DNA of 63,192 nt, filler included, from Nemertoderma westbladi (Eukaryota > Animalia > Xenacoelomorpha), in NCBI GenBank assembly GCA_032718475.1. It is 3 parts of 3 records of this genome, joined end to end, with 100 filler letters (N's around TTAATTAATTAA, not from the genome) between each part and the next. Parts side by side here need not be neighbours in the genome. Positions count along the whole stretch, not along the records: positions 1 to 26,589 come from JAUCBJ010000131.1; 2 more parts are not named here. One strand, 5' to 3'. Position 1 is the stretch's first letter; each line of letters starts with the position of its first letter. The notes beneath the pieces were generated by a model. That model searched no databases and had not been told where the DNA came from. It was given only the letters and a program-made list of their open reading frames with translations. Positions 1-57,232 of this stretch are shown piece by piece. The translations under genes were made by a program, and so were the position numbers.

Positions 1-406
1 CTATCTGGACAGGGATATTCTCTTGGACTGTTCCACCGGGTACAGGCAGTGTAGTACTATGTAAAGGGAATTTAGAGTTAAGCTCTGGAAGTACAGGGGT
101 CTCTAACACAGAAGTGACTTTGGGAACGACAGGCCTAATTATCTCAGGCTCATCAACTATTGTAGAGAGTCTTTGGACCTTAATACTTTGGGCTGTAGGT
201 TCTATACTACTCAAGTCTGTGCTAGCTAGCTGTCTTCTAACAGCTGGGGGCAAATCAGGCAATTTGTGACGGTAAGATGTTTTTCTACGCCTACTTAGAT
301 GAGATCTATTTCCTCCGCCTTCAGGATCGGTGGTCTCGCCTTCCTCCGAGGATGTGTCGCTTGCGTCCTTCTGGGCTCCTCTCTGATGACTCCGAGGCGC
401 ACCCAT
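1..406 (-). CDS. Partial ORF running off the window edge (MGAPRSHQRG...PVQI), low complexity; probably a downstream part of the gag region of the left LTR element
   Basis: Hand translation: ATG at 406, no stop before position 1; same strand as ORF 1605-2654 and LTR 5489-6722; no domain recognised. Confidence 0.3.
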   Translation of the reverse strand, partial: MGAPRSHQRGAQKDASDTSSEEGETTDPEGGGNRSHLSRRRKTSYRHKLPDLPPAVRRQLASTDLSSIEPTAQSIKVQRLSTIVDEPEIIRPVVPKVTSVLETPVLPELNSKFPLHSTTLPVPGGTVQENIPVQI

Positions 407-1604
407 GAGGCGGACGCTGTCCCACCACCCTTGGGGCCAGTCCGACTCCGATCAGACTGGGCCGGAGGGTAGCCCGATGCTTCCCGGGTTCACTTTTCAA
501 TCCCCCGATCACACCGGCACAGCTCGTCGGTGTAGCCAGATGGTCGGCTACTGTCAACTTACTGTGGCCTGACTGTACATTGAGCCAACTCAGAGAGTCA
601 ACCGGCGGGTGGACCAGTCGATAGCGATCGAGCATCAAGGTCGCCCTTGAGCCAAACCGACGGTCTTGTCCCAAGCGGGCTTGCGCTACCCACATGGAAT
701 ATTGACCGTTTTCACCCGCCTCGCCGGCAGTATTGAGGGGAAGTCGGTTCCGCAAACAATACTGACTAGCTCGAAAGCTAGGAACAAGTAACCACTTACC
801 AGTCACTGTACACGTGTACTCAATAGATGATCACGAAATCAAGTACACAACGGTAAACACAAAATCTGACGCATACCACGCACACACAGTGGACATAATC
901 GGGGAAGACATAATCGGTGACAAAATCAGAGGGGACAAAATTGTATCGACTAATAAAAAGTCGAGAGTACTTTATTTTACCGACAGGGTAAAATAACTTT
1001 GTGTGCACAAAGTATGCTGGGGCGCAGTAAAATATGGTCCTACTAATAACCGGCGGCGACTGAACCAACCGGCAAGGTTTCCCACACTCACTCGCAGTGG
1101 CCATACATACACTCACGTATACCACGTACACACACAAACCACAGATTCCAGAGTATCATTCACTCGGACCACACTACAACACCAACTCCTCCTTGCAGCC
1201 GATATTCCGGGTGCCACCTCCATTCCAATAGTAGTACCAACAGAATCATCAGAACCTGTCCATTCCGATGCAACACCTCCATTCCAATAGTGCTACCCTG
1301 GGAAAAAACACGTTTTGGCAACCGATCGGAGACAGTAAAGAGTCTGGTCAACTCATACATACCACACATAGACCTACCACATAGACCACATAAACCACAA
1401 ATCACGCCATGCCACCACCCCTACTGTGTACAGGACTGGCAGTACGGCAACAGGCCGACTAGACGGTACCACGGCACCATGTTGATTCATGGTTCGTAAG
1501 ACACGAGGGCCTTCAGTAACTCCCTTGCACTATAAGCGCGATTTAACGTGCCCCCAGACCCTCACGAGTCCGCCGCCGCCTGTTAGGGACACCCTATAGA
1601 GACC

Positions 1605-2654
1605 TCACCTCCTTAGGCATCCCTGGCGCTTGGGAGTAGATCGACTCATCATCTGCATTTGATTAGCAGTAAACTGTTTATTTATACTGTCTTGCGTCTC
1701 TTGCAGATTTTCCAACTCCAGTTGGATAGTCTCCTCAGAAGCTCTCCGCTCTGCTTCTGCCACTGCTGCTTTTCTTTCGGCTTCTGCTTCTGCCGCCGCT
1801 GCTTTTCTTTCGGCTTCTGCTTCTGCCGCCGCTGCTTTTCTTTCGGCTTCTGCTTCTGCCGCCGCTGCTGCTGCCACCCTTCTTTTCTCTATCCATTCTT
1901 TCTTTACTTGTTCTTCTCGGACTCTAATGAGGCGGAGTTTTTCATCACATTCAGCTTGGTTTGCAGCTAACATTTCGGCATCGATTGAGTCCAACACAAG
2001 CTTGGTTCCTTCACTATTAGGGGAAAGTCCAGACAGCCGTCTCCTCAACTCTTCGTCTCCTAGGAATCGCTGATAGTCGGACAAATAAATGTCGATAGCG
2101 TCTCTAGTTCGCGGCTTCTCTGCTGATGTTAATTCGCTTTCCACTTCGCTTTCCACCTCGCTTTCCACTTCGCTTTCCACCTCACTTTCCACTTCGCCTT
2201 CCACCTCACTTTCCACTTCGCCTTCCACCTCACTTTCCACTTGAGAAGAAGTGGCGTCGGTTGATTCCCCACAGGCTGGCCGCCCATCATAAACCGTATC
2301 CGCCATCTTCGCTCCGCGTTCGGGCGTCCGCTCAACAGTATCCGAACTACTGGAGCTATCGGGCCGCTGAGAACTAGGTTCTTGGCTAGGAGGTTGCTGC
2401 TGTTTTATAGCTTCTTCTTGATCCCGCTTGACTTGGGCCCGAGTGCCTATGGCAGACCAACGGCGCTTCACTAACTTCGCAAATTGCGAAATCTTTTCTA
2501 CCAACCTAGGTTCTGTCACAACCACTGCAGGGGTTGCCCTTCTTACAGTATGAGGGGTTTCAGACCTCGGTCTGGGATTCTCTACACTTTGATCTGAGAA
2601 ACAGGCTGTTGTTTCTAGGAGACTATCTGACAGAGTTTGCCTTGTGTCAGCCAT
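1605..2654 (-). CDS. Gag-like N-terminal ORF of an LTR retrotransposon (coiled coil, EVES/EVEG and AAAEAEAERK repeats)
   Basis: 349 aa ORF downstream of and co-oriented with LTR 5489-6722; E/K/R-rich coiled coil like the gag start at 35135; no catalytic motif. Confidence 0.5.
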   Translation of the reverse strand: MADTRQTLSDSLLETTACFSDQSVENPRPRSETPHTVRRATPAVVVTEPRLVEKISQFAKLVKRRWSAIGTRAQVKRDQEEAIKQQQPPSQEPSSQRPDSSSSSDTVERTPERGAKMADTVYDGRPACGESTDATSSQVESEVEGEVESEVEGEVESEVESEVESEVESEVESELTSAEKPRTRDAIDIYLSDYQRFLGDEELRRRLSGLSPNSEGTKLVLDSIDAEMLAANQAECDEKLRLIRVREEQVKKEWIEKRRVAAAAAAEAEAERKAAAAEAEAERKAAAAEAEAERKAAVAEAERRASEETIQLELENLQETQDSINKQFTANQMQMMSRSTPKRQGCLRR

Positions 2655-2784
2655 GTTTGATTGTACAGTCGAATGCCTACTGCTATATTACAGTTAAAGC
2701 AAGTCTAGTAATTCAGTATCACTGTTAGCCTAGTAATTAATTACCGATACTGCTACTCAGTGTAGCGTGATATATATATAATAT

Positions 2785-3040
2785 ATTAGAATACCGGTAT
2801 GCTTATAATATATATATAAGTATTATTACAGACTAGATTTGTCACAGAGTACCGGTATATAATTTTAGCACAAATATATATAAATATATAATAGGCCTAT
2901 CGTGAATACCGGTATACAGCCTACACTTATAGTATATAAGTATAATTCTGGACTATAATTAATTACAGAGTACCGGTATGATTTCAGCTCAAATTTATAG
3001 AGATAAATATAATAAGCCTATGGTAAGTACCGGTATGTCA
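2785..3040. repeat. Degenerate ~60 bp tandem repeat centred on TACCGGTAT (5 units)
   Basis: ACCGGTAT recurs near 2793, 2851, 2907, 2972 and 3029 with similar AT-rich flanks. Confidence 0.55.
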
Positions 3041-4022
3041 ATTATTTTTAGAATAATTGAATTCCTGAATATTTTAGGGTTACTTAGTTACTTTAACTTA
3101 CTTTATTACCGTTATTTAAGCAGTAGTCCAACTGATAGTGAGACCTAGTTGTCGTATGGCAGGCCTACTATTTATAAATCGTTTGATTTGATTTATAATA
3201 TTTATATACCCGTTTAAATGGGTTTTTTGTCAATATTTGAAATAAATGTTATTATTTCTGGGGGGTCACTACACAGAAGCTGTGCGCTCTCAGTGAAGTG
3301 CTATTTATTGGACACTAAAACTGATAATTCTAATTTACCTAAGTTACTTAATACTACAAATTACTTACGATACGGGTGAGATTAATTCTCTAATTAAACA
3401 CAACAAAATATTACGTACGAAATTTTTAGGGTAATTTTACAGGAAGTCTACAAACCAGTCCAACAAAGGGTTAGATTTCTGGTTATTACAAAGGACAGGG
3501 TACTACGGTATTTAAATAATAAGTAGTAGTAAATATATTGTACTGTCCAGATAGGAAAATACCACCGCCTGACGACCTATAACCGTATCGCTATAGGTTC
3601 TACGTTATGTATCACGGATTGTTCCTACCCAGAAGCTAATAGAGCTAACGAATGTGCCTATCAACCACTTTACAACACAAATATACTGCCTACACTAATT
3701 ACTTCGGAAAGCACTGTACACTAAACCCTAAATTAGGTACAAGTACCGGTATAACAAATAATCAGTAGTTAAATATACTTGAACAGTTAAAAGAACCACG
3801 GCATCTGCTGGAGTGACCGAAGCACAAAGTCGTCAGTCTTTACCTACGCCAAGCAGCCCTGTGTAGTACCGGAGTTAATTTAACTATAACGGTATGTGTA
3901 ACAAACACAATTACTGTAGGAATAAACTTGGGGACATGAATGTTGCGAATAATCGCATAAACTCTGAATAATAAATATTACGCTACCCGTACAGAATACT
4001 CAAACAAAATACAAACCAAACG

Positions 4023-4537
4023 CTGGCAGACTACTATCAAGCCTAAACAAACTACAGTATGTGCAGATTCTGAAACTGTTAGTTAGTATGCGTTCTAACA
4101 CGGTAGTACGACTTACTCTTTAAGAGGGGATTGACCTTACCGCTTATGGCTGCCCCAACTTACTAACGGCACTTGATCAGACCAACTCTACACACGCAGC
4201 AATCCCTTCAGACCTAAAAATAGCTAGACAACAATCCAGCCTACAAATATTTGAGTAATAACTATTACGGTACCTGAACAGACCACACAAACAAACACAG
4301 GCTAAAACACTGGCAGACTACGATCAAGCCTAAATAAACTACAGTATATGCAGACTCTGAAACTGTTAGTTAGTATGCGTTCTAACACGGTAGTACGACT
4401 TATTCTTTAAGAGGGGATTGACCTTCAGCATATGGCTGCCCCAACTTACTAACGGCACTTTATCAGACAAACTCTACACACGCCGTAATCTCTCCAAACT
4501 CAACAACAGTCAGACAGCAGCTCAGCCTACAACTATC
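4023..4537. repeat. Direct duplication of ~230 bp (period 287) in the leader of the left LTR element
   Basis: ctggcagactac.atcaagcctaaa...cagcctacaa at 4023-4250 and 4310-4537. Confidence 0.85.
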
Positions 4538-4742
4538 TGAACAATCTGAGCAGGGTCACACGCCTTCTGCTCAATATTAACTTACTAGGAAATAAAACCG
4601 ACAGAAATAGGTAAAATCTCAATAAAAATTCAGGGCTGCAGTCCCTGATTAAGTACTAAGACCTACCAGTATACAATAATCAAAATCGAATAATACTAAA
4701 TGTACTTGTACAGCAGTACCGGTACCGGTGATGACAGTTAGG

Positions 4743-5304
4743 CCCGTATGCTAAGTGATTTTTTTGTGCGCCGAACACGACGCGGCGCAGAAAAAAATGT
4801 GCGCCTGCGCAGTCGAAAACAGTGCAAAATCCGCGTGCGCAGCAGAAAAACTGCGCGAGATTGGCGCGCGCAGCAGAAATTCTGCGCGAGATTGGCGCGC
4901 ACAGCAGAAATACTGCGCGAAATCTCCTACCACGTACCTGCCTGCCTACTGCTGTACTGGCCTAAAGCACACCAAGCAGCCAAGTAGCAAGTAGGAGGCT
5001 TATTATTTCAGTATTTCTTTCAGTCTTATCTGTATTGTCATTACCCTGTTACCGGTAGTCAGCAGACTGCCAGGGGTAGTGGGTAGGTCTACTTACCGGT
5101 ACTGACTTAGTGCTGTAGTGCAAGTCTGAGCCGTGCTATCAATTTTCTGCGCCTGCGCCTGTCAGCCTGTCGCGCCGCGCTCTAAATTTTCTGCGCCTGC
5201 GCGCGGCGCGGCGCTGCGCTCTCAATTTTCTGCGCCTGCTCCAAATTATGGAAAAAATTGTGCGCCGAACGCGTTCGGCGTACATGCCCTACTTAGCAGA
5301 ATGG
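4743..5304. mobile_element. Non-autonomous DNA transposon (MITE) with 8 bp TSD, hAT/P-like
   Basis: TSD cagttagg at 4735-4742 and 5305-5312; imperfect TIR cccgtatgctaagt / acttagcagaatgg; GC-rich GCGCAG(C)AGAAA subterminal repeats in opposite orientation on each arm. Confidence 0.8.
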
Positions 5305-5488
5305 CAGTTAGGCCTACTGACCTACAAAGTACCGGTTCAGTTTTACCAGTCACTACGGTATTTTGCAACCCTATTGCCTACTGCAATAAGATTATAAACT
5401 GTTACTGTTCGACAGAACAGTATTAAACTGTATTTAATGCCTACACTTGCAACCTTATTGCCTACTGCAATAAGATTATAACTGTTAC

Positions 5489-6722
5489 TGTTCGCGCTTT
5501 TGAAGACCTTTAGCAGTTTAACCTGCCAAAATTTATATGTCTTTTAGTTAATTAACACACCTTTAGCATACGACAATATTTTATGCTAATACGCAAAACA
5601 TTAGCCGAAGCCAGCCCATGCGCGATCATTCACCCGATGGATCTACACCCGGGAGGCTGAATTCGGATGCTTAGATTTTATTATTGCAGTGTAAGGTTGC
5701 AGTGTAAACCTATTGTATTATTCGATAGATCACTAATATGTAATTTCTGACAGATATTATTAACTTTCGGGAAATATTAACAGTTCCTTTAGGACGTGGC
5801 GCTCTATCTATTTAAACAGAGCTAGGACTTATACTAAACGCAACGATAAGGCTTATGATTAAAGTATAAGTCGCATTCTTTAGGAAATGCTTTGTTACCA
5901 GTCACATCACACTCACAATCATGCACACTATTCTGCCGACCGTCAGAATACTTGATCACACATAAAGAGAACAGCAATTGACTCAGGTAGTGTCTACTAA
6001 ATAACATTAGATTCAATACACACCACATTGATATAAATCGCAATTGTTATATATAGCCCGCCTCTCTAACCTGTAGTGTATCAAGAAAATTGGGAATTTT
6101 GGGTGATTTATCCGTATTCTCCAAAGAGCAATATTTCCATCAACAAATAGATACAATTAATAACTGACGGTAAATAGCAGTACAAACAATATGATTAGTG
6201 CAGTTAAATTAAGTGAGGTAACACCGCCGGTAACAGTTATACTTTCTATAATCTAAGCAGTTTACTAGAGTTCTTCCCAAAAAGCCGGTGTTTCTGGCTT
6301 AGACAGCAATAACAACAAAGTATCAAGTAAAAACAGTAAGACTGAACACTCTCCTTATGATCGGCCGAAAAGCTACACGTCGACAGGAAAAATCACTCTG
6401 ATTGGCTCAAGCCAAACAAAGAACCATGCATCCAATGGCTGTTTCCATGTCAGCAACCAGCTGTTAGATGTCGTAATATGAATCATCACGGCTAAGCTGT
6501 GAAAGGTAGTTGGTGCATTGCAGGTTTTTTGCCTTACCATGTCCGCCAAAACACGTATATAGCAGAATGACTTTTATGTCCGTTAAAACACCTGTAACGG
6601 TACCTTGCGGGCGAGGGGAATATATATACAGTTAGAGAACCTTTTTAGAGTATTCCAGCGCCTGGGGGGAAACTGGATTGCGAAGCAAAAGGGGCCAGTT
6701 ATATCCCACAGAAGCTTTTACA
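5489..6722 (-). mobile_element. Complete LTR (1234 bp, TGTAAAAGC...GCGCGAACA), 5' LTR of the element extending left
   Basis: TG...CA ends; both termini match LTR 55991-57232; flanks gttac/gcagt are not a TSD, so not a simple solo LTR. Confidence 0.85.
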
Positions 6723-6857
6723 GCAGTTAGAGCCCAGCATGGACTCCCGTAGAGGAGTACTGGAACTACTGCTGCTCTAAATAATTAAACCTCTAAATAA
6801 TTTTAGTAATAACATACTACAGTACTTACTATACACATGTCCTGGAATATAGTGTCG

Positions 6858-7910
6858 TTATTCAAGTACCTGGACCCCCCCCCCCTCCCAAATTTTTCTA
6901 CAAATCGTAATGAGATTGCATGAAATTTGAAACAGAGATACAGTAGTTTCACCTCCCTTCTCCTTGCTGGGTGAGCCAGAATTTTTATTTTTGCTTTCAA
7001 TCTTTATCTACAAGCGTTTGAAAAAGGTGTCCCCGGTGATATTTCACCAGTTACACTGTAGTTACTCATGAACCTTATCGTGATTTGTTGGTAGAAATAG
7101 AAAGCTACTGTAACCATGCAAGGATCCCAAAAATGTAAAAATATTTGAATTTGGTTGTGAAATACTGTAGCTGAGATATGAGCGTTCAAAAGTTTCATGG
7201 TTTTGCACCTGCGCGAGGCTGTTTTATTTTATTAAATAAAAACACTATATTCTAGAACATTTTGTTTATGAATGAATAGCTCCAAATAACAATAATACAA
7301 TAATATGAATTTATATTATCATTAATTGAGCGTTTAAAACTATAGTTCACCAATGTAATCATCGATAAATGACAATAAGTAAACCGGATTATACAATATT
7401 AAATAATAGTCTTGCCCATTCCCCCCGAAGAACGAAAACAATAAATAGCTTCATAATAATATGTTTAAAGAAGCATTGCATTGTTGCCCAGCTACGTATG
7501 GGATAAACAAAACGTTCCAGAATATGATGTATTTATTTTATTAAATAGAATAAATGACATGCGGGGGAAGCAAATACATGCAACTTTCGAATGCCCATAT
7601 CTCGGCTATTTCTCTACCAAATTCAAATGTTTTTATTTTTACACTTCTGGAATCCTTGCACGACCAGCTTTCTACTGGTACCAACAAATCGCGATAAGAT
7701 TCAAGAATAACTGCAGTGTAACTGGTGAAATATCACGGGAGACACCTTTTTCAAACGCTTGTAGCTAAAGATTGAAAGCAAAAATAAAAATTCTGGCTCA
7801 CCCAGGAAGGAGGAGGGAGGTGAAACTATCTTTGTTTCAAATTTCATGCAATCCTCACTACGATTTGTAGAAAAATTTGGGGGGGGGGGGGGGTACAGGT
7901 AGTTGAATAA
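6858..7910. mobile_element. Foldback/MITE element with ~400 bp inverted arms
   Basis: 6858-7265 is the imperfect reverse complement of 7510-7910 (ttattcaagtacctg... / ...caggtagttgaataa). Confidence 0.85.
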
Positions 7911-9478: not shown

Positions 9479-11043
9479 CTGTATAAAACTATCTATTGGA
9501 TATAAACAACTACGTAATAATAATATTACAGTATATAGACATTGCATTATATAGGTATGGCTACTTACTGTATAATATCAATTATCTTATCATTAAAATT
9601 TGTAGAATAATGAGCATGAGGGGGATGGGGGTCGTGTCACTGAATTACTATACTGTACTATCCTATATTCCAGGGTATTGAGTAATAAATGCAATAATAA
9701 ATTTATTAATTATAACGAACCTGTCTTTAGACTGGGTAGTTTTTGTCTAAAGCTGAGGCCGGCAAAAACACGATGGATATATTTACCTATATATGTCACT
9801 ATATCACTCACTATGTATGTTCACCAAATGGCTTGAAACCACTTGCATGCATTGTAAAATTGTAAACGCAAGTATTTATCAATTGTTGTCTAGTTGTTGA
9901 ATAAAAAAGTTGGGAACGATTCGAAGTGCGATATTCGAAATATTTGCATATTTTCAACATTATTGAACGCGAAATTAAATACCCACAACTCCCTTGCTTG
10001 AAATGTTTTTCAGGTGATTGATATTTAGCAATTATTATGAGGTTACTTACTACTGAAATCTGACAGAATGCCAAACGTATTATTATAGTTCTATCTCTAT
10101 TCAGCCAGTTAGTGTAATGTCAAGCAGTACATCATTTATATATCGTATGTATCTATAGGGCCTAATTGTCATCGTTATAATACTGTCATCAACTTAGGCT
10201 AAGCTCAATTGTAATGCAAAGGCTTAGTAGGTTTTGTATATCTGGGACGTTTACAACAGCTGTCGATTAAACTAACAAAACCATAAAACTGAACCAGGGT
10301 GGCTGCCAGCCGGGTACCAACGGCTGTTGGGTAGACTTAAGGGAACATTTCACAAACTTTCATAGGATGCTTGTACATGTACATTATATTGGTTGCTCCG
10401 ATGTTTTTATTAGGCTAACTGAGAATGTATCAGGTATAAATACTGTAATTATAGTGTTCTTTATTTTATTTATCTAATACAGAAAAGACCCCTCCGCAGA
10501 ATAAACTGCTCTTTTGGGCCGTTTCTCAGGTTGCGGATATGGATACCATTTCACACATCATCGTAGTAATTGTGATTATGATTTGTTTGCCTAGGCGAAT
10601 GTGTATTACATTAGATGGGAGGCAGTTTTTTGGTTGATGCAAGTCATTCTTGGTTTGCATCTTCCAATCCCATCAGTTTCTTGGAGTCCGTGTAAGACAG
10701 GTTCGTTTAAAGCCATCTTGATGGCGTTCTAGTTATTATTAAATTATATATTTTATGTTACAAATATAAGACAAACAATAATAATTTTCTTAAATGATTT
10801 TCAGAATATAAACTTGAAATATAATTGCGGGGCGAGCCGCCTAATTAAAGATTTATACTTGATCAGGTTAATCTCATCTGTGTAAAAATAGGCCGCAGTT
10901 AAAGGCCATTGAAATTAAAATTTATAGATTTTCTTTATTCGTATTGATATAGACTATCCTGTACATATATACATACTATAATTATCAAGCATATAATACA
11001 TATATATCTATTTAATTATTCGTTATAAAGGTGTAATATACTT

Positions 11044-13159: not shown

Positions 13160-13870
13160 TTATCCCGAGTAAAAATATTGTGTGTTGAAAAATATCGATA
13201 ATATCCTGAGCTGAGAGTAAAAAATATCGAGAGTAAAAATATTACGAGTAACAATAACGAGAGTAAAAATATTACGAGTAACAATATCGAGAGTAAAAAT
13301 ATTACGAGTAACAATATCGAGAGTAAAAATATTACGAGTAAGTCCCCCCTCACACGGAGCAACTTGTTTCTGCAACTTGTTTCTGAAACTTGTTTCAGCA
13401 ACCTGTTGCTGGGCCCCCTCACACACAGAAACAAGTTGCTGCAACTTGTTTCTGCAACTTGTTTCCGAAACTTGTTTCAGCAACCTGTTGCTGGACCCCC
13501 TCACACACAGAAACTTGTTGCTCAAGAAAATAACAATTATTTCAAAACAAATAGCTAACATGTCCAGTCATTTATATATTATAATATCAAATCACTCAAT
13601 TTATCGAATATTACCTCTAATCTAAAAATTGGATGTAAAAAAGGTTTTTTAAAAGGTTGCTGGGTATATAACTTCCAGCAACTTGTTGCTGGACCCCCTC
13701 ACACACAGAAATAAGTTTCGGAAACAAGTTGCAGAAACTTGTTGCTGGAGTCCTCACACACAGAAACAAGTTTCGGAAACAAGTTGCAGCAACAAGTTTC
13801 TGTGTGTGAGGGGGGCCTTACAATATCGAGAGTAAAAATATCGACAGTAAAAATATCGCGAGTAAAAAAA
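13160..13870. repeat. 15/30 bp tandem repeat (GAGTAAAAATATTACGAGTAACAATATCGA) interrupted by a MITE
   Basis: Units at 13214-13340 resume at 13820-13865. Confidence 0.75.
13342..13817. mobile_element. PIF/Harbinger-type MITE
   Basis: TIR (g)tcccccctcacac / gtgtgagggggggcc-like; TAA/TTA flanks; AACTTGTT subterminal repeats; sister copy at 58336-58848. Confidence 0.8.
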
Positions 13871-17935: not shown

Positions 17936-18680
17936 CGCATACATATAGGACCTAGCAGCTTCCAGGCTTCTGAGCATGGCCTATCAGCCTATCTGGCAGT
18001 CTGTTGCTGTTAGCATTTTTGATACCGGTATCTTTCTTGTTCATTTTGTATGCTTTTTGTAGTTTAGTACGTCTACATGCTACAGGCAGACAGGCCTAAG
18101 GCTGCTAGGTGCTAGGTCTACGCCTGCCTGCCGGTGTTTAGCTGTATTCAGGTATTTAGTAAGTAGGCCTACTGTCTGAATGAGCAGGTTACAGTTACAG
18201 TGGCAAGTTTTTCTAACCAAAACAATACAGCAATAAACGAGAGTGAAAAACAAGTATTTTGTGGTATTTTGGTTTGGGGTAATTCGTAGGACCGTTTTTA
18301 CAGTTTTTAAAACACTTCACAAACAGAAAACAGTGCTGCACCTGTACACGAACACGGTCAAGGCAGCAAGGGATCGAACAGGCAGACAGGGGCAGCAGCT
18401 ACCGGTACATGTCAATTTTGACATGTACAGATGTATGTCAATTTTAACATGAGAAAAACATTAAGTATTTATATTATCTAAACGGCACGGTGCAGCGGTG
18501 AAAACAATTTCCGCACGGTCAAAAGTTTCTAATTTACTTATAATTTCGATTTTCAGATTTTTATATTTAAAAAACACGTCTGGAAATATTTGAACACGTC
18601 AGGTAAAAAAATGTCAATATCGACATGTCCATGTCAATTTTGACATGCCCCATCCTGGAAAAACTAGCTCTACCTGTCTA

Positions 18681-34132: not shown

Positions 34133-35054
34133 TGTACGCGCTTTTGAAGACCTTTAGCAGTTTAACCCGCCAAAATTTATATGTCTTTTGGTTTATAAAT
34201 AGACTTTAGAAGTTGACATATATTTAATACCAATAAACACAACATTAGCAAAAGCCAGCCTAGTGCGCGTCCATTCACCCGCTGGATATACCCGGGAGAC
34301 TGGATTCTGAGGGCTTAGATTATTATTGCAGTGTAAGCTTACTGTATTATTCGATTGATCGTTAATAAATAATTTCTGACTAATATTATTCACTTTCGGG
34401 AAATATTAACAGTTCCTTTAGGACGTGGCGCTCTATCTAGGTAAACAGAGATATGACTTATACTAATCACAACGGTAAATCGGTAAGGCTTATGATTCAC
34501 GTATGAGGCGCATTCTTTAGGAAATGCTTAGTTATCAATCACAATCAGGCACACTACCGGTAACACACAATACTGCTCACTATTTTGCCGACCGTCAATG
34601 AATTTTATCATATATAAAGAGAACAGCAACGGACTCATGTAGTGCTTATCAAATAGCATTAAATTCACTACAAACCACAATAATATAAGTCGCAATCGCT
34701 ATATATAACCCGTCTCTCTAACCTGTAGTGTATCAAGAAAATTGGGAAATTTGGGTTCTTTATAAATATTCTCCAAATAATATTCAACCAAACAACAGTA
34801 AATAGCAGTATAATAATGTATGTTGAACCGATAATGTAAGACTGAATTGAGATAAGTTGATATGTTATGCACTGATAACAGTTATACGCTCTATAATTTA
34901 AGCCTACTAATGTTTCTTCTAAAGTATGAAAACGAGTTGACTCTAGAGCCGGTGTTCCTGGCCTAGATAGAAACAACACAACAGTATCAAGAAAAAACAG
35001 TAAGACTGAACACTCCTAGCACGATCGGCCGAAAGCTCCACATCGACAGAAAAA
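34133..35054 (-). mobile_element. 5'-truncated LTR, second copy
   Basis: Same as 30336-31257 at offset 3797. Confidence 0.9.
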
Positions 35055-35134
35055 CGGAATGTAAGGAGCATGAGGCGAGAGAGGAAAAGGAACGCAAGGA
35101 GCGTGGGGCAAGACGGCGGGAGGAAGTTAGGAGA

Positions 35135-36976
35135 GTGGCAGAGTTGGCCAAACAGAGCGAACGGGAGTGTAGGGAGAGAATAGCAAAGGAGGAGTGTGAG
35201 CGAAAAGAATTAAAGAGATGCCAAAGTGAGCTTGCGGAGCATAGGATTAGGCGCACGCGCGAGCTGCGACTGGTGCGGGCGGGGGCGTCTGAGAGCGGGA
35301 CTGGCTCGAGTATTTTAGGGGAGCCAGGGGCCGTGGATACATTTATTAATACCCCACTTACAGGGACCGCACGACAGACCCAAAACTGGTGTGACCGTAC
35401 GGGCGGGGGGGGTAATAATGATAATGGTACAGTAGACGTGGTTAATATTAATAGTACCGTATGGGACAATTCTAACCAAACCTTCATTGCAGCAAATAAT
35501 ACTTTACCTAGTAGCGGTAATTTAAATTTAAATACAAATAATAATTTCAATTTGAACGTGCAAAATAATCCGAATAGTAATTTAGATTTAGAGAATAATA
35601 ATAATTCAAATAATTTAAATAATGATCTAAGCCCGAATTTACAAAATAATTCAAATGATTTTGTTTCAAACGAACAAATTAATTCCGTTTCCGATATGGG
35701 TGTTATTAACGTAAACACGTCGGGCGTGTATAGCCAGACAGACGGGGGCCTGGTAGGTCGTACAGTTGGCGGGCCGGAAGTAGCTGGGTTAGATAGACCC
35801 AGCGAGGGCCTGGTAGGCCACGTAGTTGGTAGGCAGGAAGTAGCTGGATTAGGTAGACCCAGCGAGGGCCTGGTAGGCCACGTAGTTGGTAGGCAGGGAG
35901 TGGCTGGGTTGAATAGACCCAGCGAGGGCCTGGTAGGCCACGTAATAGCAGAGGGAAAGGCGGGGGTGAATAGACCCGACCGCGGTAGGGTTGATGTGTC
36001 GACTAGAGAGGGATATAGTAGAGGGGTGAGAGATAGCGAAGTTAGATGTGGCGAGTGGGGGGGGGGGCTACAGGGGCCCCACAACAGCGAGTTAGCGGCG
36101 AAAGGGGGGGGGGCAGAGAGTGTCCCACAGCCATCAGCGGATAATGCGCGGGCCGAGATAGGTAAACCGCAACACCCGGCGACGGAAAGTAATAGGGGGA
36201 TTGCGAGTATCCCCAGCGGCGTGCGACCGAGCAGAGAGAGACAGGTTGACGTCGTAAGAGGGCGGACGAAGCGTCGAGCCCGATCAGAAGAGGGAAGAAG
36301 AACAGTGGGGTTTAACCGGGAGGTCGACGAGAGATCTCACGAGCGGGAATACTCCACTGAAAGGAGAAGAAGAGAAGACAGTAGTAGAGGTATCGCCGCG
36401 AACGATAGAAGAGCGAGGACGGATAGCGAGCCGTCGGTAGTTGAGATGAGAACGGAGAGTCAGTGGGGTCGGACTCCGGGAGATTGCCGTCGCCCCGGAG
36501 AGATGCGACCCGGCGAGGCGCACTACGCGCCGATGGAGGGGTACGCGATGTACCGGTACGAAGATGAGAACAGTAGAGGGGGGGGTCGAAGAGAAACTTT
36601 CCGACGGAATACACCTATCGATCGAGAATACGGTAGCCACGGGGAGGACTATTCAAGAAGAATAAACTTCGATCCCGAGCGACACATGCAGACTGTAGGA
36701 CATACTGTAGGCCTTACTGCACATACCATAGGCCATACTGAGAGAGGCAATGTAGGGGATAGGATAGCGCGGGCAACGGGATTAAACCCGGAAGTCGCGG
36801 AATACATACCGACGAGTAGGCCAGAAGTTGATAGGCCTATACCGGTACCAGTACAGCAGTATGACTACAGCATGCAGGGACATAACATATACCCAGGGGA
36901 GGGGGGAATTATTGCGGATAGGTGTATGGGCCCCAACATATTAACATACCAAACATACAAAACAAACATACATTAA
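35135..36976 (+). CDS. Gag N-terminal low-complexity region (coiled coil, Asn-rich tract, 20 aa repeats, R/G/E-rich)
   Basis: 613 aa frame directly upstream of the gag core; true start lost at the 35054 junction. Confidence 0.7.
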   Translation: MAELAKQSERECRERIAKEECERKELKRCQSELAEHRIRRTRELRLVRAGASESGTGSSILGEPGAVDTFINTPLTGTARQTQNWCDRTGGGGNNDNGTVDVVNINSTVWDNSNQTFIAANNTLPSSGNLNLNTNNNFNLNVQNNPNSNLDLENNNNSNNLNNDLSPNLQNNSNDFVSNEQINSVSDMGVINVNTSGVYSQTDGGLVGRTVGGPEVAGLDRPSEGLVGHVVGRQEVAGLGRPSEGLVGHVVGRQGVAGLNRPSEGLVGHVIAEGKAGVNRPDRGRVDVSTREGYSRGVRDSEVRCGEWGGGLQGPHNSELAAKGGGAESVPQPSADNARAEIGKPQHPATESNRGIASIPSGVRPSRERQVDVVRGRTKRRARSEEGRRTVGFNREVDERSHEREYSTERRRREDSSRGIAANDRRARTDSEPSVVEMRTESQWGRTPGDCRRPGEMRPGEAHYAPMEGYAMYRYEDENSRGGGRRETFRRNTPIDREYGSHGEDYSRRINFDPERHMQTVGHTVGLTAHTIGHTERGNVGDRIARATGLNPEVAEYIPTSRPEVDRPIPVPVQQYDYSMQGHNIYPGEGGIIADRCMGPNILTYQTYKTNIH

Positions 36977-36992
36977 CGTACCAAACATACCG

Positions 36993-38165
36993 GTGGGGGG
37001 GGGACAGGGTGACATTCCCCCATCACAATATCAACAATATACCCCGATAGGAGCAAGAACAACGAGACCATTGGATGAGAACAGGTCGTGTGATACAGAT
37101 ATATGGAGGGGGCCGCTACCCCCGATGAAATACCCAAGTCAGAGAAAGTCAAGGAATAGGACGGACGAACCGTACCAGACAGGAGAAACTACACAACATC
37201 CATCGAACCCATTGGAAGCACAGGCGATGGGGATGGCCACGTTGATCGATGCGTTGAAAACGAGGATCGAGCTACCACCCGTGGAACCATTCAAATTCGA
37301 TGGGAGCAGGCCGGAAGAATATCTACAGTTTCGGCGCATGCATAGTAACGAAATACTAACGAAAAACTTGACGCAGGCGGAGTGCCTAAAGTATCTGCAA
37401 GTATACACGGGAGGCCCAGCATACGATATCGTGAGGCAATATCAAGGAATAGAGGGCGGCTTCACGACAGCATGGCGGGCACTGGATAGGGAATACGGGC
37501 ACCCGGCCAAGATCATCAGGCAGACGCTGAGAGGCATAACATCGGGTGGCCTACAGGATAATCCCGTTAGCATTAAGACGTTCGCTAACAAAGTCGAAAA
37601 GGCGCTAATCGTGCTGAAGACGCTAGACGCGCCATATGAGCTCAATGCGTCCAATAACATCACCACGATAGCGCAGGCACTACCAAACTGGCTGCGCAAC
37701 AAGTGGAGGAAGATCGCTTTCTCCACTCGAGATAAGAAGGGTGCGGAACCGGGCTTAGAAGAAATGTCAAACTTCTTAAACTACGAGGCTGAACTAATAA
37801 CTGACCCAGTCTATAGTGAAGATAGCCTGGGAAAGGGACCGAAGACAGACTACCATAGACCGAAACCGGAGCACAATACATCAAACGCATTACCGAGACT
37901 CAGGCAATCATTGCCATATGCAGCGACGCAGGGGACTGCAAGTCCACAGCTAGCCGAAGATAAGACAACACCATGGAACGGACAGGGAAACAATAACAAC
38001 ACGAACAAACATAACCCCAGTACGTCCACTAGGCCGAATCCAAACAATAAGAATAGTAGGGACTTTGGTACGAACACAGCTGCGATACGCAATGCACTGT
38101 ATAAAGAGGGCTACGACCCAAAGAGCAAATGCAGCTACACGCAAATGCGCTTCATCAAACCATGA
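36993..38165 (+). CDS. BEL/Pao gag core (DUF1759-like)
   Basis: LPPVEPFKFDGSRPEEYLQF...LKYLQVYTGGPA...AWRALDREYGHP...LPNWLRNKW...FLNYEA...DPVY. Confidence 0.85.
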   Translation: MGGGQGDIPPSQYQQYTPIGARTTRPLDENRSCDTDIWRGPLPPMKYPSQRKSRNRTDEPYQTGETTQHPSNPLEAQAMGMATLIDALKTRIELPPVEPFKFDGSRPEEYLQFRRMHSNEILTKNLTQAECLKYLQVYTGGPAYDIVRQYQGIEGGFTTAWRALDREYGHPAKIIRQTLRGITSGGLQDNPVSIKTFANKVEKALIVLKTLDAPYELNASNNITTIAQALPNWLRNKWRKIAFSTRDKKGAEPGLEEMSNFLNYEAELITDPVYSEDSLGKGPKTDYHRPKPEHNTSNALPRLRQSLPYAATQGTASPQLAEDKTTPWNGQGNNNNTNKHNPSTSTRPNPNNKNSRDFGTNTAAIRNALYKEGYDPKSKCSYTQMRFIKP

Positions 38166-39350
38166 ACTGCAGGTACTGGCAGGCGCTACCTAGGCAAGTT
38201 CAGATAGATTATGCGTCGAGCAATAAAATCTGCTCGCGATGTGTGATGAGTGGGCATAGAGCAAGGGAATGCAAGGAGAAGCCGATCAAGTTTGGTCAAA
38301 GGAGAGGCCAAACGATGGCAACAAGCACAGTAGGGGCGAAGAAGAGAGGAACGGTGTTACTTGGAGTAGTACCCGTGCGAGTGATTGGGGAAGGCAATCG
38401 ATCAGTAACAACACTAATGCTGGTTGATAGTGGAGCTGCCTTCACATTAGTCGAGGAATGGGTGGCCGAAGAGATAGGATTGAGAACGAGGCCAAGCAGA
38501 ATGGCGGTAACAACCATCTCTAGCAAAGATGAGATCCTGGAGATGAGAACAGGACGGTGCGCAATTGCAGCAGTGGCACCAGGATGCGACTATGGGGCAA
38601 CCATCGACCCCATCCAAGTGATAGAGTCAATTAATATCAATGCCAGGCGGCCAACCAACATCGAGGTCGAGCAGCATAAATTCCTGGACGACATTGACTT
38701 CTCAATCCCAGACGTGGACGTTAGGAAGGTATCCATCATAGTAGGGATGGACTGCCCAATGGCCCACGAAAGAATGCAAACGGTCTTCGGCGAAGACAAG
38801 CAGTGTGACCCGGTGGCGATATTAACACCATTCGGGTGGACGCTGAGTGGTCCAATCAAGAGTAAGACACCATTTAGGATGTCGGAGACATCAGGATGCA
38901 TGTTCGCGGGAACAATGCAGGAGATGGGTGACGAGGGAGCAGAGGAGCAGCTTAGAAGACTGCTCAGACAGGATTTCGAGGGACTGAAAGAAACCAGGGT
39001 CAGGACATCGGTAGAAGACAAGCAGGCTTTACAAAGCATGGAGGAATCGATGACATGCAATGAGGGGCGGTGTACTATAGGAATGGTATGGAAGCTACCG
39101 AAGATACCGCTGCCCGACAATAGAGGGATGGTACTCACGAGACTCCGCAAGCTGAAACAAACACTAAAACGGAGCCCCGAGAAGAATGAGTACATCCACA
39201 GAACAATTAAGAAGTACGTCGAGAAAGGATGGGCCGTGGAGTTACCGGTCGACGAGCCGAACACGGACAGGACATATATTACCTGCCACTACACGTGGCT
39301 TTAGACCCAAAGAAAGGTAAACTACGGATGGTAGTCGACACATCGGCAAA
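38129..39350 (+). CDS. Gag zinc knuckles + BEL aspartic protease + pre-RT region and first RT residues (frameshifted, truncated)
   Basis: CSRCVMSGHRAREC; LVDSGAAFTLV; IIVGMD; TPFGWTLSGP; LPDNRGMV; frameshift to YYLPLHVALDPKKGKLRMVVDTSAK, then homology stops. Confidence 0.88.
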
Positions 39351-39368
39351 GAAGATCACTTCAGGGAG

Positions 39369-40877
39369 ATGCACGAACAGCGGCTGGTCGGGACCTACGG
39401 GACGCCGTCGCTGGACAACGCGATCTTCCAACACTTCCACTACGTGGTGAAAGGGGACGAGGCGAAGTTCGGGATTCCGAAGTACCCGAGGGAATCACCG
39501 AGGAAGGACTGGAAGAGATTTATAGAGTCCATCAACAGAGGAGGATATATGATCCTAGACGACGAGGGAACCGTGGAAGACGAGGCGGGTTCGAGACGAG
39601 GAACAGCGGGGTCGGCCAGGACCATACTCTTACATTTGGCCGCGCCAAATGGGGACATCTTCTTATTCGATCTAGGAACGTATGGGAAGAAGGACGGGCC
39701 GAAATTAAACCGGTTACCGAAAGCGGTACAAGTCTTGGTAAGAGAGAAGTCGACGACGAAAGTGGGATCGGCGATTCGCGAGGATGCGGAGAGAATCAGC
39801 GATCCGGATGCCACCAACCTCCTGGATATGCAGAAGGTCTTTATGGCTATGACGGCACCGGATGGGTTGGGGGTAGTCGAAAACACAGGCCAATGCGGGG
39901 CGGTGGCAATGGGCCAATTATTGGGGCTCGTGTGCCACAAACCGATGGATTGGGGGAAGTTTAGGGAAGAATACGGAGCAGAACTAGCGAACTCGCTAAA
40001 GTGGGGAGCGAGACCGGGAAAGCAGGAGGTATATCAATTCCGCAGGGGAGCGATAAAGGTACTTCAGAAGCGATATATCCTGCAGGAGGACTGGATGATG
40101 ATAAGTTTGCTTAACTTATTCATGACCGTGGTTATCGAGAGGGAACCAGGGGCATTTCTGTTATCGGGATCACCCCTAAGCTACAGGAGAGCCTTTAAAG
40201 TGGCCTTCGATGGTCTGGTAGACCACCCGGGGCTGAAGGGCGAGTCGGTGTACTACGACAGCCGGCATCTGGTAGACGGGGAGACAGATACGCCGTATCA
40301 GAGATGGGAGCAGCTAGAAACGGATAGACGAGAAGCAAAGCGACTAGAGGAAGTCGCCAGACGGGAGAGGATAGAAGCAGAGGAGAGGGAAGAGGAGGCC
40401 AGGACACAGAGTTACGGCTTCGAGGAACAGGCAGGCCTAGACGAACTTCATTGGACTTCATCAGGGAGTTCGGGGGAGTCTCTAGGGCGAGAACTGGGAT
40501 GGACGGTGGGATCACCGAAACAGTCGACGTCGGGGTTGCAAACGATGCCCATACCAGCAGGCGCCGAAGGCGACCAACCGCCAAGGAAGTTAAGGGAGTT
40601 AGAGGGATGGAGAGCTACGGGCGAGAGCCAAGGCGGGAAGGGACATAGTGGATCCATCGGGAAACCGGGGTTGGAGTCACTGCCAGAGGAGGAGGACGAC
40701 GACGACGAGTTCGGAGAGATGCCGCCCATCGAGAGGATAGGCCACTCGGACACGGACTGGGATGGCGATGGATTTCGCGGGGAGCACTATCAGGTTGGGC
40801 GAGCAACCGGGGATGGCACCACGGATAGTATTCGGGGAGACGATGCCCGAGAGGGGCGGAGAGATCGACGTAGATAG
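39369..40877 (+). CDS. DEDDy/DnaQ-like 3'-5' exonuclease (WRN-exo/EXD/RNase D-like) with coiled-coil and acidic tail
   Basis: ExoI ILDDEG (D64,E66); LLHLAAPNGDIFLFDL; LPKAVQVLVREKSTTKVGSAIREDAERI (ExoII D139); LLDMQ; ExoIII-like QKRYILQED (Y236, E240/D241). Confidence 0.75.
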   Translation: MHEQRLVGTYGTPSLDNAIFQHFHYVVKGDEAKFGIPKYPRESPRKDWKRFIESINRGGYMILDDEGTVEDEAGSRRGTAGSARTILLHLAAPNGDIFLFDLGTYGKKDGPKLNRLPKAVQVLVREKSTTKVGSAIREDAERISDPDATNLLDMQKVFMAMTAPDGLGVVENTGQCGAVAMGQLLGLVCHKPMDWGKFREEYGAELANSLKWGARPGKQEVYQFRRGAIKVLQKRYILQEDWMMISLLNLFMTVVIEREPGAFLLSGSPLSYRRAFKVAFDGLVDHPGLKGESVYYDSRHLVDGETDTPYQRWEQLETDRREAKRLEEVARRERIEAEEREEEARTQSYGFEEQAGLDELHWTSSGSSGESLGRELGWTVGSPKQSTSGLQTMPIPAGAEGDQPPRKLRELEGWRATGESQGGKGHSGSIGKPGLESLPEEEDDDDEFGEMPPIERIGHSDTDWDGDGFRGEHYQVGRATGDGTTDSIRGDDAREGRRDRRR

Positions 40878-41676
40878 AGACACCAACATGGAGAAGTTCG
40901 CCTACCAGCGACTCCACAGACTGCGGAGATCGCTTGGGACGAAAGACGAGGTGGGACGGGAGACATTGGTACTCGGCTGCGACTACTGTGGGAGACAGAC
41001 CCACCAGGAAAGGAGCTGCTTGTACCGGTTCCAGAAGGGAACCTTTTGTCTCTACTGCCGAGAGCCAAGCCACAGGATGGGGGCGTGTCCACGGTTGCAT
41101 AACCGATGTCCAAAGTGCCACTTTCGGGGACACTACGGACGCGAGTGCGACTGGATGAACGACGAGGAGAAGTTCACAAGATTCGAGGAGTGGGCCGACG
41201 TCGGGGCCATGACGCGTCAGCGCATGAAGGCCCAGGAGTTCAAGTGGGGTTTCTTCCTTATCAATCAGGAGACTCACATGGAAATCATAAAGCGGAGGCT
41301 ACCGTTTACCTACCAAGAGGTAGCAACGGCGGCGTCGTACGCCGGAGTGATGAACACGCAAAGATATTTGGACAGGTGGACGCCACAGAACCGAAGGGAG
41401 TTTAGGGATTTCTTGGTGGAGCACGTACCGCAAGCAATGAAAATGATCCTATGGGACGCCACCAGAGGGAGACAACCGGGCCACTCTGAGGGGCCACCGG
41501 CGAAGCGATATCGGGCACTAATAACACCAGCGCCCAAGGAGCCAACGACCGGGATCAGCAGGGAGGTGGCGGCGAAGGTCCGAAAGCAGAAAGCGGATCC
41601 CAGAGGAACGGTGGTAACCAAGAAACGACCCAGGGAAGAGGACGCCAGGGGGAACTATCCCCAGAGGAACAGATAG
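40762..41676 (+). CDS. Triple CCHC zinc-knuckle protein, possibly the frameshifted C-terminus of the exonuclease ORF
   Basis: CDYCGRQTHQERSC, CLYCREPSHRMGAC, CPKCHFRGHYGREC, each CX2CX4HX4C; basic C-terminus. Confidence 0.8.
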   Translation: MAMDFAGSTIRLGEQPGMAPRIVFGETMPERGGEIDVDRDTNMEKFAYQRLHRLRRSLGTKDEVGRETLVLGCDYCGRQTHQERSCLYRFQKGTFCLYCREPSHRMGACPRLHNRCPKCHFRGHYGRECDWMNDEEKFTRFEEWADVGAMTRQRMKAQEFKWGFFLINQETHMEIIKRRLPFTYQEVATAASYAGVMNTQRYLDRWTPQNRREFRDFLVEHVPQAMKMILWDATRGRQPGHSEGPPAKRYRALITPAPKEPTTGISREVAAKVRKQKADPRGTVVTKKRPREEDARGNYPQRNR

Positions 41677-42378
41677 GTTCCCAGAGTCGAGGGAGAGAGA
41701 CTGGGACTTGGACGTGGTACGCCTGGAAGGCGCTGCGTGAGACGTACGAACTATTAAGTACAAATCTAATTAATGCAAATAATCATATAAGTGCAATTTG
41801 TATGTATGTACGTAGTAATTACTAATCTACAAATATACGTTCGGAGTAAGTACTATAGTCATACAACCTTTCTCAATTAGCTACTGGGACTGGGGGATAA
41901 CTGACTATGGCACTATGGACGAGACACCAGACAATTTCACACTTCTTGAGTGCGACGGCACAAGAGGGGGGGGGGGGAGATTCGTCAGGAGGAATGAGAT
42001 AGTCAAAGTGGGGTTGAGGGACAGAGTAATAGAGCGAAGTGCAAAGAGAGTGCGGACGCAATTCTAGTGTGGGGGGGGAGAATAAGAGGCTGAGTGAGGG
42101 ACGAGGAGGTTCGAGTGTATGAGAGAGTTAGGATGAGAGTGAAGAAGAGATAGGGCGGAAGTGTTGGGGAAACAAAAGTTGCGTGAGAGGTGAGCGCGAT
42201 CGGCCCGACATGAGACGCCAGGCACACAGGGTAGCGTTATCATACCCATAGGGAGCGGCCTGGAAAGCCGGCTCCGAGAGAAAAGAATTCCACCCCACAC
42301 CCGATACTAGATCGGGATCCAGCGGGATTGTAGCGCACTTTTTTGGTTGATGCTATCTTCTTACCGGGAAGATAGCAT

Positions 42379-42387
42379 GGGGGGGAG
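42379..42387 (+). other. Polypurine tract
   Basis: GGGGGGGAG directly before TGTTAGC. Confidence 0.7.
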
Positions 42388-43208
42388 TGTTAGCTTATTC
42401 AATCCCGCTAACACCCCATAAAGTTAAGCCGATAAGCAATATTGGGAGCCATGAGATTGGGTAATCAACCAACTCGTGCCACCCCAATAAGAATGGGAAG
42501 GAGAAGCACACAATGAGGGTCAGGGGCCAAACCCCTAACCCAGAGAGAACAGGTGGAGTGAACGGGAACACTCCAAAGGGCGCCAACAAGGGTATCAACC
42601 AATCAGAGGGGGGAAAGGCATCGATTAGGTAGAGTAACAAGGCCAACCGTGCAATATAGCCACTTGGCAGTAATCATATCAGTTCAGTTATCTCAGTGCA
42701 ATACTGGTGCTAGTTTAGGTTAGATAGTTTAGCTAGGGAAGGACCGGGACTTTAGTTACCGTATCCCGCCTTCCGTGTACAACAATCTATATCTATATCT
42801 CTATACCGATCATTATATACAACGAACGACACGAACCCATTTACTCTTCACACACGGCGGGGACGCGTGAACTAACAACGGATAAACCGGGATCCCTCCT
42901 GGATCCCGTCACAACATTATTTAGAGCGCCACGTCCTAAAGGAACTGTTTATATTTCCCGAAAGTGAATAATATTTGTCAGAGATTATATATTACGATCA
43001 GTCGAATAATACAGTAGGCCTACACCGCAATAAGGTTAGGCTTCCGAATCCAGTCTCCCGGGTATATCCAGCGGGTGAATGGTCGCGCATAGACTGGCTT
43101 CGGCTAATGTAGTGTATCAAATACTCGTCATAGGCTAAAGTCGATTTATTATCTAGAAGACATCCAAATTTGGCAGGTTAAACTGCTAAAGGTCTGAAAG
43201 CGCGAACA
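42388..43208 (+). mobile_element. 3' LTR of the BEL/Pao element (821 bp)
   Basis: Starts TGT after the PPT; ends AAAGCGCGAACA; right boundary confirmed by empty sites gcagtg|agcgttg at 29352 and 33149; last ~290 bp shared with the other LTRs. Confidence 0.8.
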
Positions 43209-49671: not shown

Positions 49672-49762
49672 GTTGAGCTAGTTGAGCAGTTGAGTTCGCT
49701 CAACCTCGTATTATGTAATCATAATAATTTATATAGTATTTTTCGCATAAAACCAAACCAAA

Positions 49763-55990: not shown

Positions 55991-57232
55991 TGTAAAAGCT
56001 TTTGTGGGATGTAACTGGCCCTTTTGCTTTGCAATCCAGTTCCCCCCCAGGCGCTGGAATACTCTAAAAAGCTCTCTAACTCGAATGATGCAAAGCGACC
56101 TGCGGATTGGCTGATTTGTTATACGAGGGGCTCTTTGCTATGTTCTATCGGCCAACCAGAGCTATAGCAGCAGAGTATGCAACCAGGGCAACCGAGCGGA
56201 GTGACTCATTTTGTGTGTTGGCCAAGGGCTGCAAAAATCCTGATAGTTCGGCATTTAGATATTCGTGGAACCTGTGGAATCTGGTGTTCTGCCAATGAGA
56301 GCTATTCCTCTCTGTGTAAAAAGATACCTGCAACGGTGTTAGAGTCAGAGAGTGTTTTTGTTACTGTTGTGTTGTTTCTATCTAGGCCAGGAACACCGGC
56401 TCTAGAGTCAATTCGTTTCAGACTTTAGAAGAAACATTTTAGATTATAGAGCGTATAACTGTTATCAAACCCAACTCAATCAGTGCAACACGGCTCAATC
56501 GGCACATACATTGTCATATCATATCTTAACCTACCGTCTTAATGCTTTTACTGTTGTTATTATTTTGTATCAGTTGGTTGAATATTATTTGGAGAACATC
56601 TATAAAGAACCCAAATTTCCCAATTTTCTTGATACACTACAGGTTAGAGAGACAGGTTACATATAGCGATTGCGACTTATATTATCGTGGTTTGTAGTGA
56701 ATTTAATGCTATTTGATAAGCACTACATGAGTCAGTTGCTGTTCTCTTTATATATGATAAAATTCATTGACGGTCGGCAAATTAGTGTGCAGTATTGTGT
56801 GTTACCGGTAGTGTGCATGATTGTGGCTGATAACTAAGCATTTCCTAAAGAATGCGCCTCATACGTGAATCATAAGCCTTACCGACTTACCGTTGTGATT
56901 AGTATAAGTCATATCTCTGTTTACCTAGATAGAGCGCCACGTCCTAAAGGAACTGTTAATATTTCCCGAAAGTGAATAATATTAGTCAGAAATTATTTAT
57001 TAACGATCAATCGAATAATACAGTAAGCTTACACTGCAATAATAATCTAAGCCCTCCGAATCCAGTCTCCCGGGTATATCCAGCGGGTGAATGGACGCGC
57101 ACTAGGCTGGCTTCGGCTAATGTTGTGTTTATTGGTATTAAATACTTGTCATTTTCTAAAGTCTATTTATAAACCAAAAGACATATAAATTTTGGCAGGT
57201 TAAACTGCTAAAGGTCTTCAAAAGCGCGTACA
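55991..57232 (+). mobile_element. Complete 3' LTR (1242 bp)
   Basis: GGGAGCGG PPT-like then TGTAAAAGC ... AAAGCGCGTACA; ends match LTR 5489-6722. Confidence 0.88.

Follow-up and report, generated by a model that had tools for sequence, protein, structure and literature searches.

A probably self-primed, high-copy LTR retrotransposon family with a BEL/Pao-associated U5 in Nemertoderma westbladi

We analysed a 63,192-nt stretch of the Nemertoderma westbladi genome (GCA_032718475.1), here called the window, which joins three parts through 100-N spacers and takes its positions 1-26,589 from JAUCBJ010000131.1. Self-comparison revealed five related LTRs, A, B1, B2, C and E (Table 1); B1 (30336-31257) is nearly identical to B2, and both are 5'-truncated and lie within a tandem duplication. 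LTRs A and C both begin with TGTAAAAGC and finish with GCG(A/T)ACA. LTR E shares only its last ~290 bp (U5) with LTRs A-C, and its unique part has no significant homology to A, B or C (204, 273 and 427 of 500 shuffles, respectively). The purine-rich tracts before C and E fix the orientation of the elements, in agreement with a preliminary description of this DNA, and because A lacks a preceding purine-rich tract and its upstream flank is an interrupted repeat, A is a 5' LTR. The interrupted sequence is another high-copy repeat, with the boundary at 6722/6723 (contig loose ends at 6721 and 6785), of which 6723-6785 is a piece. A 197-aa frame at 55371-55964, directly upstream of the purine tract of LTR C, has neither a Pfam match nor similarity to element E.

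The remainder of the window holds an amidase (11029-12915) and a PPM1D-like phosphatase (60717-62108), each in one uninterrupted frame with no introns, and a non-LTR retrotransposon reverse transcriptase on the minus strand (23999-26386; RVT_1, E 6.6e-27). The best matches of the PPM1D-like ORF are from hemichordates at only 58-59% identity, and the database searched thus contains no close relative. Tandem arrays occupy 49762-52073 (63 bp, keeping one frame open over 742 codons), 32065-33116 (84 bp) and 17588-17936 (21 bp), and MITE-like inverted-repeat elements lie at 6858-7910, 13338-13821 and 58337-58849. The segment 29301-32066 repeats 33098-35863 at 99.9%, possibly through misassembly around the 84-bp array. 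Within 33149-44171, a stretch of ~960-980 bp (96.7% identical) is found on both sides of a unit formed by the inverted B2 and element E, the U5 ends of which point outward on both sides. We rejected a DIRS-like inverted-repeat reading of 34133-43208, because what would be its right arm is U5 sequence from an ordinary 3' LTR that follows a purine tract.

Table 1. Positions, along the whole window, of the LTRs and of the features discussed in the text.
Feature	Position	Strand	Remarks
349-aa coiled-coil low-complexity ORF	1605..2654	-	downstream of leader; no Pfam or Atlas match
GC-rich MITE-like insertion splitting leader	4750..5305		limits approximate, set by eye; depth falls below 5312
Second imperfect copy of LTR end, PBS and leader arm	5364..5413	-	also high-depth
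Leader arm downstream of PBS	5439..5473	-	pairs with U5 5710-5681
PBS-position 12-mer, GTAACAGTTATA	5477..5488	-	no TGG; first base G or A among copies
LTR A	5489..6722	-	1234 bp, TGT...ACA; 5' LTR of element A
Conserved U5 hairpin	5605..5666	-	5666-5654 with 5617-5605; encloses 5620-5628
U5 segment pairing with LTR end	5620..5628	-	partner 5497-5489; 8 pairs, 1 mismatch
U5 partner of leader arm	5681..5710	-	short duplication, only in LTR A among window LTRs
LTR segment complementary to leader 5423-5409	5925..5939	-	15 bp, 3 G-U
Candidate self-primer, TATAACTGTTAC	6230..6241	-	3' base would pair with first post-LTR base
LTR B2	34133..35054	-	5'-truncated; inverted relative to element E; 12-mer ending in T
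Element E interior	35055..42387	+	broken: 5'-truncated gag (DUF1759), aspartyl protease, start of RT, exonuclease-like ORF, zinc-knuckle ORF
Exonuclease-like ORF	39321..40877	+	element E; one Atlas lead
LTR E	42388..43208	+	3' LTR of element E, preceded by purine-rich tract; no contiguous 12-mer
AGTTCAGTTAT, one candidate primer of E	42681..42691	+	TATA-like plus initiator-like position in LTR E
GT..AG 49-nt stretch, second candidate (splice-built primer)	42707..42755	+	weak donor
LTR C	55991..57232	+	1242 bp; 3' LTR after purine-rich tract; 12-mer ending in T

The preliminary description held that LTR A is followed not by a tRNA-type PBS but by a 12-mer complementary to its own LTR, and both statements stand: the 12-mer (5488-5477) starts immediately after GCGAACA, the last bases of the LTR, and is perfectly complementary to 6241-6230, and TGG is absent within 5 nt of the LTR end. 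No TGG-type site occurs among the 18 loose ends listed for the 5414-5560 contigs, no tRNA-like primer was found within the element, and a tRNA gene search of the window found none. Self-primers are recognised in PMC6317226 by at least 10 bp of LTR complementarity located 0-5 bp after the LTR; element A has 12 nt at offset 0. Among 20,000 dinucleotide-shuffled versions of the LTR, 5 gave a match of at least 12 nt at offset 0 and 32 gave one somewhere between offsets 0 and 5, and 15 of the 114,108 window 12-mers outside LTRs have their complement in LTR A. The 11-mer TATAACTGTTA, reported as conserved at 56454-56464 and 31079-31089, is found there and additionally at 34876-34886. B1, B2 and C share with A the 12-mer's first 11 nt; the twelfth is C in A and T in B1, B2 and C, and the base that follows is C in LTRs A, B and C. 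All coordinates of the earlier geometry hold, with the correction that the LTR starts at 6722 and the 12-mer lies 481 nt inside it, ~740 nt from the PBS. The pairing energy of the A/T-rich PBS is unremarkable (8 of 200 shuffles pair equally well with its first 20 nt). The predicted probability of the primer-PBS helix in a nested fold is 0, a modelled value that gives self-priming no support, the helix crossing, as it does in Tf1, a U5-leader helix that the program cannot show together with it.

According to PMC10085805, Tf1 needs three duplexes, one between primer and PBS and two between PBS-adjacent sequence and the LTR downstream of the primer. Pairing between leader and U5 had been described as helices of 10, 10 and 5 bp, and we found those at 5473-5464/5690-5681 and 5457-5448/5701-5692 to be exact and the 5-bp one to be lengthened by G-U pairs. 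The 10-bp leader-U5 helix has pair probabilities of 0.72-1.0 in the nested fold, and the whole duplex (-35.9 kcal/mol) was matched by 1 of 200 shuffles. The segment TGCAACCTTA, thought to be peculiar to this LTR variant, is indeed present in the window only in LTR A and its leader. A helix formed by the LTR end adds a third duplex to the two of the preliminary description: when the whole LTR was scanned, the best partner of the terminal 10 nt was the same U5 segment in four of four LTRs, with one pair being T-A in A and E versus A-T in B2 and C, a linked compensatory change that represents one evolutionary event among four related LTRs. In this helix and the hairpin that encloses it all 80 cells pair, and the covariation score was reached by 16 of 500 shuffles; RNAalifold predicted the enclosing U5 hairpin and did not choose the LTR-end helix, and swapping LTR ends costs little pairing energy. 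All three Tf1-type duplexes have counterparts in element A at the level of sequence. The leader also has hairpins of its own and several LTR-complementary arms (z -4.1), among them 5939-5925/5423-5409 (-27.0 kcal/mol, 0 of 200 shuffles). In one fold the leader tail pairs with the initiator-like 6347-6341; we rejected this pairing as a marker of the start site, since 105 of 200 shuffles did equally well.

Parts of 2600-6900 are covered, as contigs only, by seven runs of four studies, of which X1, X3, X4 and X5 (the last possibly RNA-derived) were compared over 5200-6850 and X1, X3, X4 and X7 over 5414-5560, X7 (another organism) yielding 0 records over the latter interval. Expressed as summed contig depth, which is not copy number, leader bins 5312-5479 reach 254,000-300,000 in X1 (possibly the window's own source) versus 15.5 at the flank 6824-6850, and the leader reaches 112,000-165,000 in X3 versus 16.8 at the flank. 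Among the 24 contig pieces listed, 13 cross the LTR/leader junction at 5488/5489, 11 extend beyond 5494 into the LTR while two stop there and represent the second PBS copy, and one bridges by a 31-letter rule; two loose-end rows at 5488/5489 (X4, agreement 0.6) resemble mixed flanks. Leader variants without the second copy, and with one further repeat, both occur. A one-off inverted rearrangement, which the preliminary description named as fatal to its proposal, is unlikely: the junction is family-wide, and in contigs of three DNA studies the summed depth of the leader exceeds that of the flank thousands-fold.

These contigs also carry variation that mirrors the LTRs. Four substitutions at 1% or more are listed for 5414-5560, and the sole one in the leader is at 5488, G>A in element sense, with summed depths of 101,238/337,984 in X1 (30%, 29 contigs), 29,977/156,428 in X3 (19%, 9 contigs) and 0/330 in X4. 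The A variant mirrors the LTR copies B and C with a 12-mer ending in T, and the ATAACAG PBS anticipated from such LTRs thus exists in X1 and X3 contigs. If the primer is copied into the new PBS, any change at its 3'-terminal position should reappear at the first position of the PBS, which is what the contigs show; the proposed covariation of PBS and LTR 12-mer accordingly holds for the first base at the population level, but primer and PBS states are not linked per molecule, and the G of the PBS can also pair with U. A one-base insertion behind 5479 (80,088/256,597 of summed depth in X1, ~31%) breaks the distal three pairs, and this insertion-type PBS can form 9 bp with 6238-6230 plus 8 bp with 6254-6247 (-15.1 kcal/mol for the second copy, a value matched by 2 of 200 shuffles). 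A further leader variant, with a loose end behind 5447, is without the TAAGGTTGCA arm (12 contigs of X1 in the 5200-6850 comparison; 8 of X1 and 3 of X3 in that of 5414-5560), and LTRs B and C are without the U5 duplication that partners this arm. The correspondence between leader arm and U5 duplication is, on these contigs, one of populations, the states being unlinked within a single molecule. The leader of LTR A pairs poorly with B, C and E (102, 197 and 43 of 200 shuffles, respectively, were as good).

The family had been described as BEL-associated. This holds for the ~290 bp of U5 that A has in common with the BEL/Pao copy E, but A itself encodes nothing recognisable: its interior (1-5488), which runs off the window, has no similarity to the interior of E or to BEL polyproteins. 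Element E has frame breaks near 36960, 38130, 39310 and 40800, and its own 5' junction is lost. Its gag carries DUF1759 (PF03564, E 1e-10), and its protease-RT region found 3 matches among 2743 candidates, all with BEL-type Pfam domains (best E 3.4e-12). Against the RNase H and integrase parts of BEL polyproteins element E gave no match, and none of the copies in the window yielded an RNase H. Coding sequence of an LTR element accompanies A's U5 only in E, where it is BEL/Pao-like, with no gypsy-type pol or chromodomain integrase; element A has no pol within the window. A U5 pattern search returned 0 matches in viral contigs and 0 in metagenome contigs, and of 28 pattern matches for loci related to the E protease-RT none was confirmed. 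The Atlas lead for the exonuclease-like ORF (features 0.93, 168/256 shared) points to a cluster with PF01612 in 34%; Pfam, phmmer (0 of 3832 candidates in one search and 0 in another) and PDB sequences gave no match, and a single-sequence model reached pLDDT 33. We found no support for the suggestion that an accessory exonuclease is linked to priming, as the ORF sits in another element and owes its identity to that one lead. A zinc-knuckle-rich ORF (40741-41676; weak zf-CCHC_4, E 0.0013) follows it just before the 3' UTR of E. Element A is probably non-autonomous, with a U5 common to a BEL/Pao lineage, and we infer that its priming and integration signals are common to that lineage as well.

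Where transcription starts bears on how such a primer could arise. Using motifs in LTRs A-C and E that we take to be TATA-like and initiator-like, start candidates at 6240-6241, 6254 (the edge of the extended complementarity) and 6343 (TCAGTC) would place the 12-mer at or near the RNA 5' end, and those at ~6214 and ~6031 would place it in U3, the former applying if TATAAC within the 12-mer itself serves as TATA box. In LTR E, a TATA-like motif lies at 42655 and a TCAGTT further on; the A of the latter, at 42681, is the first base of an 11-mer that ends GTTAT and is followed by C, as in B and C; we presume this 11-mer to equal the Tf1 primer. The flanks of 42707-42755, when joined, match A 6237-6228 over 10 nt, a joint that was looked for post hoc. 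Shuffles reproduced the 8-nt core in 28 of 1000 cases for any removal and 12 of 1000 for a short one, and the 10-nt match in 2 of 1000. In LTR A, GT-AG ends occur in 0 of the 10 contig joints listed over 5200-6850. Both LTR types also have AG/GTTAGA upstream and TAG/AGCGCC precisely where the shared U5 begins, which resembles a 220-265-nt intron (6070-5806, minus strand; 42717-42935, plus strand), with no intron-less joint among the joints listed.

We conclude that the window preserves, in element A, the 5' end of an LTR retrotransposon whose high-copy family has no tRNA-type primer site and is likely to self-prime its minus-strand DNA synthesis. Self-priming in some form we regard as quite probable, and the Tf1-like form, from the RNA 5' end, as reasonably likely. 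In the mechanism that we propose, the transcript would start at the 12-mer or some way upstream, the 12-mer would anneal to the PBS, and the LTR end and leader would pair with U5 to give a three-duplex 'pretzel'. A cut just 3' of the 12-mer, by the RNase H of a helper element, would then free a 3'-OH abutting the LTR end, by analogy with Tf1, in which RNase H cuts between bases 11 and 12 (PMC7175516), and the primer would later be copied into the new PBS. Because the BEL/Pao copy shares its U5, element A is likely served by a BEL/Pao enzyme.

A self-derived primer need not come from the RNA 5' end. The 12-mer could lie in U3, perhaps overlapping a TATA box, and the primer could be supplied by an upstream transcript or by a second RNA in the particle, in the latter case from its 3' LTR copy, and be cut and trimmed back to the duplex, possibly by the exonuclease-like protein. 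This is consistent with TCA at +28/+29 after the first T of the 12-mer in A, B and C and with a conserved TATA-like motif at 6057 (both noted post hoc), with the finding of no TATA ~30 nt upstream of 6241 or 6254, and with the presence of the exonuclease-like ORF in the U5-sharing element E. We nevertheless consider such an origin unlikely, since cutting the 3' copy would remove the R required for strand transfer unless the second RNA provides it, a candidate primer of LTR E sits right at a TATA plus initiator-like site, and the ORF has no Pfam, phmmer or PDB match. The several LTR-complementary arms and hairpins of the leader, which indicate that complementarity is not special to the PBS, would also fit pairings that fold the 5' RNA (for packaging, dimerisation or a switch hiding the PBS) while a host RNA primes, for example a fragment from inside a tRNA that happens to fit the site; in copia lineages, half-tRNAs are described as primers (PMC6317226). 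A fixed host primer, however, would keep or reset the first PBS base, which instead varies with the LTR 12-mer, and the primer-PBS duplex reaches the LTR boundary and goes no further, the C that comes next in all of LTRs A, B and C being unable to pair with the terminal A; we regard priming by a host RNA as quite improbable.

It is also conceivable that the leader records a past template switch or repair event, in which inverted bits of LTR were copied, the real PBS was deleted and the product was amplified without reverse transcription. In favour of this, pieces complementary to the LTR make up the leader as a patchwork, a second copy lies in tandem, and the window contains other rearranged LTRs. 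We judge this very unlikely, because the depth is high in three studies and several leader variants track different LTR variants, G-U pairs are retained, the LTR-end helix lies wholly within the LTR and is common to four LTRs, and LTRs B2, C and E finish in different flanks.

It is possible, though somewhat short of probable, that a BEL/Pao lineage arrived independently of the gypsy Tf1/sushi elements at the complete pretzel of Tf1 and at an identical primer end (GTTAT/GTTAC), and that related LTRs hold different solutions, namely a ready-made primer in A, B and C and, in E, either a start-site primer or a primer assembled when a 49-nt intron is spliced out. The mechanism would be a known one, now in a group regarded as tRNA-primed: per ICTV, the PBS of BEL/Pao elements is 18 nt long and fits tRNA-Arg or tRNA-Gly of the host, and their replication is termed poorly understood (PMC8742986). 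Our search of the main texts of openly accessible papers found none on self-priming in BEL/Pao, and the words primer, PBS and tRNA are absent from PMC3118150. Published work describes self-priming in Tf1/sushi elements, and the same is predicted of Tcn1 and of copia TAR (PMC6317226, PMC4600332, PMC5341516, PMC5006619, PMC6934838, PMC2864245, PMC5443660, PMC3601003). If the proposal is correct, tRNA-free priming would be recurrent in all three LTR superfamilies, which would bear on the ancestral status of self-priming, a matter discussed in PMC3601003, and BEL/Pao elements might escape control by tRNA fragments. The family is abundant and polymorphic and hence amenable to testing.

BEL elements of the Cer7/Cer13 type in C. 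elegans have an accessory exonuclease-like domain, and Cer7 has an element-encoded tRNA-like primer; unlike Cer7, element A contains no tRNA-like sequence. In its DUF1759 gag, its protease-RT region matching BEL/Pao polyproteins, its TG..CA LTRs and its purine-rich tract, element E resembles Belpaoviridae, whereas element A has neither an 18-nt tRNA-Arg/Gly PBS nor BEL coding sequence in the window. Element A is comparable to plant copia TAR (Houba, Osr-1) and gypsy Tcn1, for which self-priming is predicted from an LTR-complementary PBS without tRNA match (PMC6317226), but those elements are of other superfamilies and kingdoms. Differences from Tf1/sushi are that element A is animal and BEL/Pao-linked and no chromovirus, and from Tf1 that its LTR is 1.2 kb long, with a long primer-to-PBS distance, extra leader arms and a repeated PBS, that no RT or RNase H of its own was found, and that its primer is only a candidate for the first RNA nucleotides. 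Like Tf1, Tf2, Tj1 and Tosmo (Tf1/sushi, Ty3/gypsy), element A has a post-LTR PBS complementary to an LTR-internal 11-12-mer, and it shares with Tf1 the two further duplexes of PBS-adjacent sequence with the LTR downstream of the primer and the start of the PBS, which is (G/A)TAAC in element A and ATAAC in Tf1, where the cDNA end acquires it as a copy of the primer (PMC11042837).
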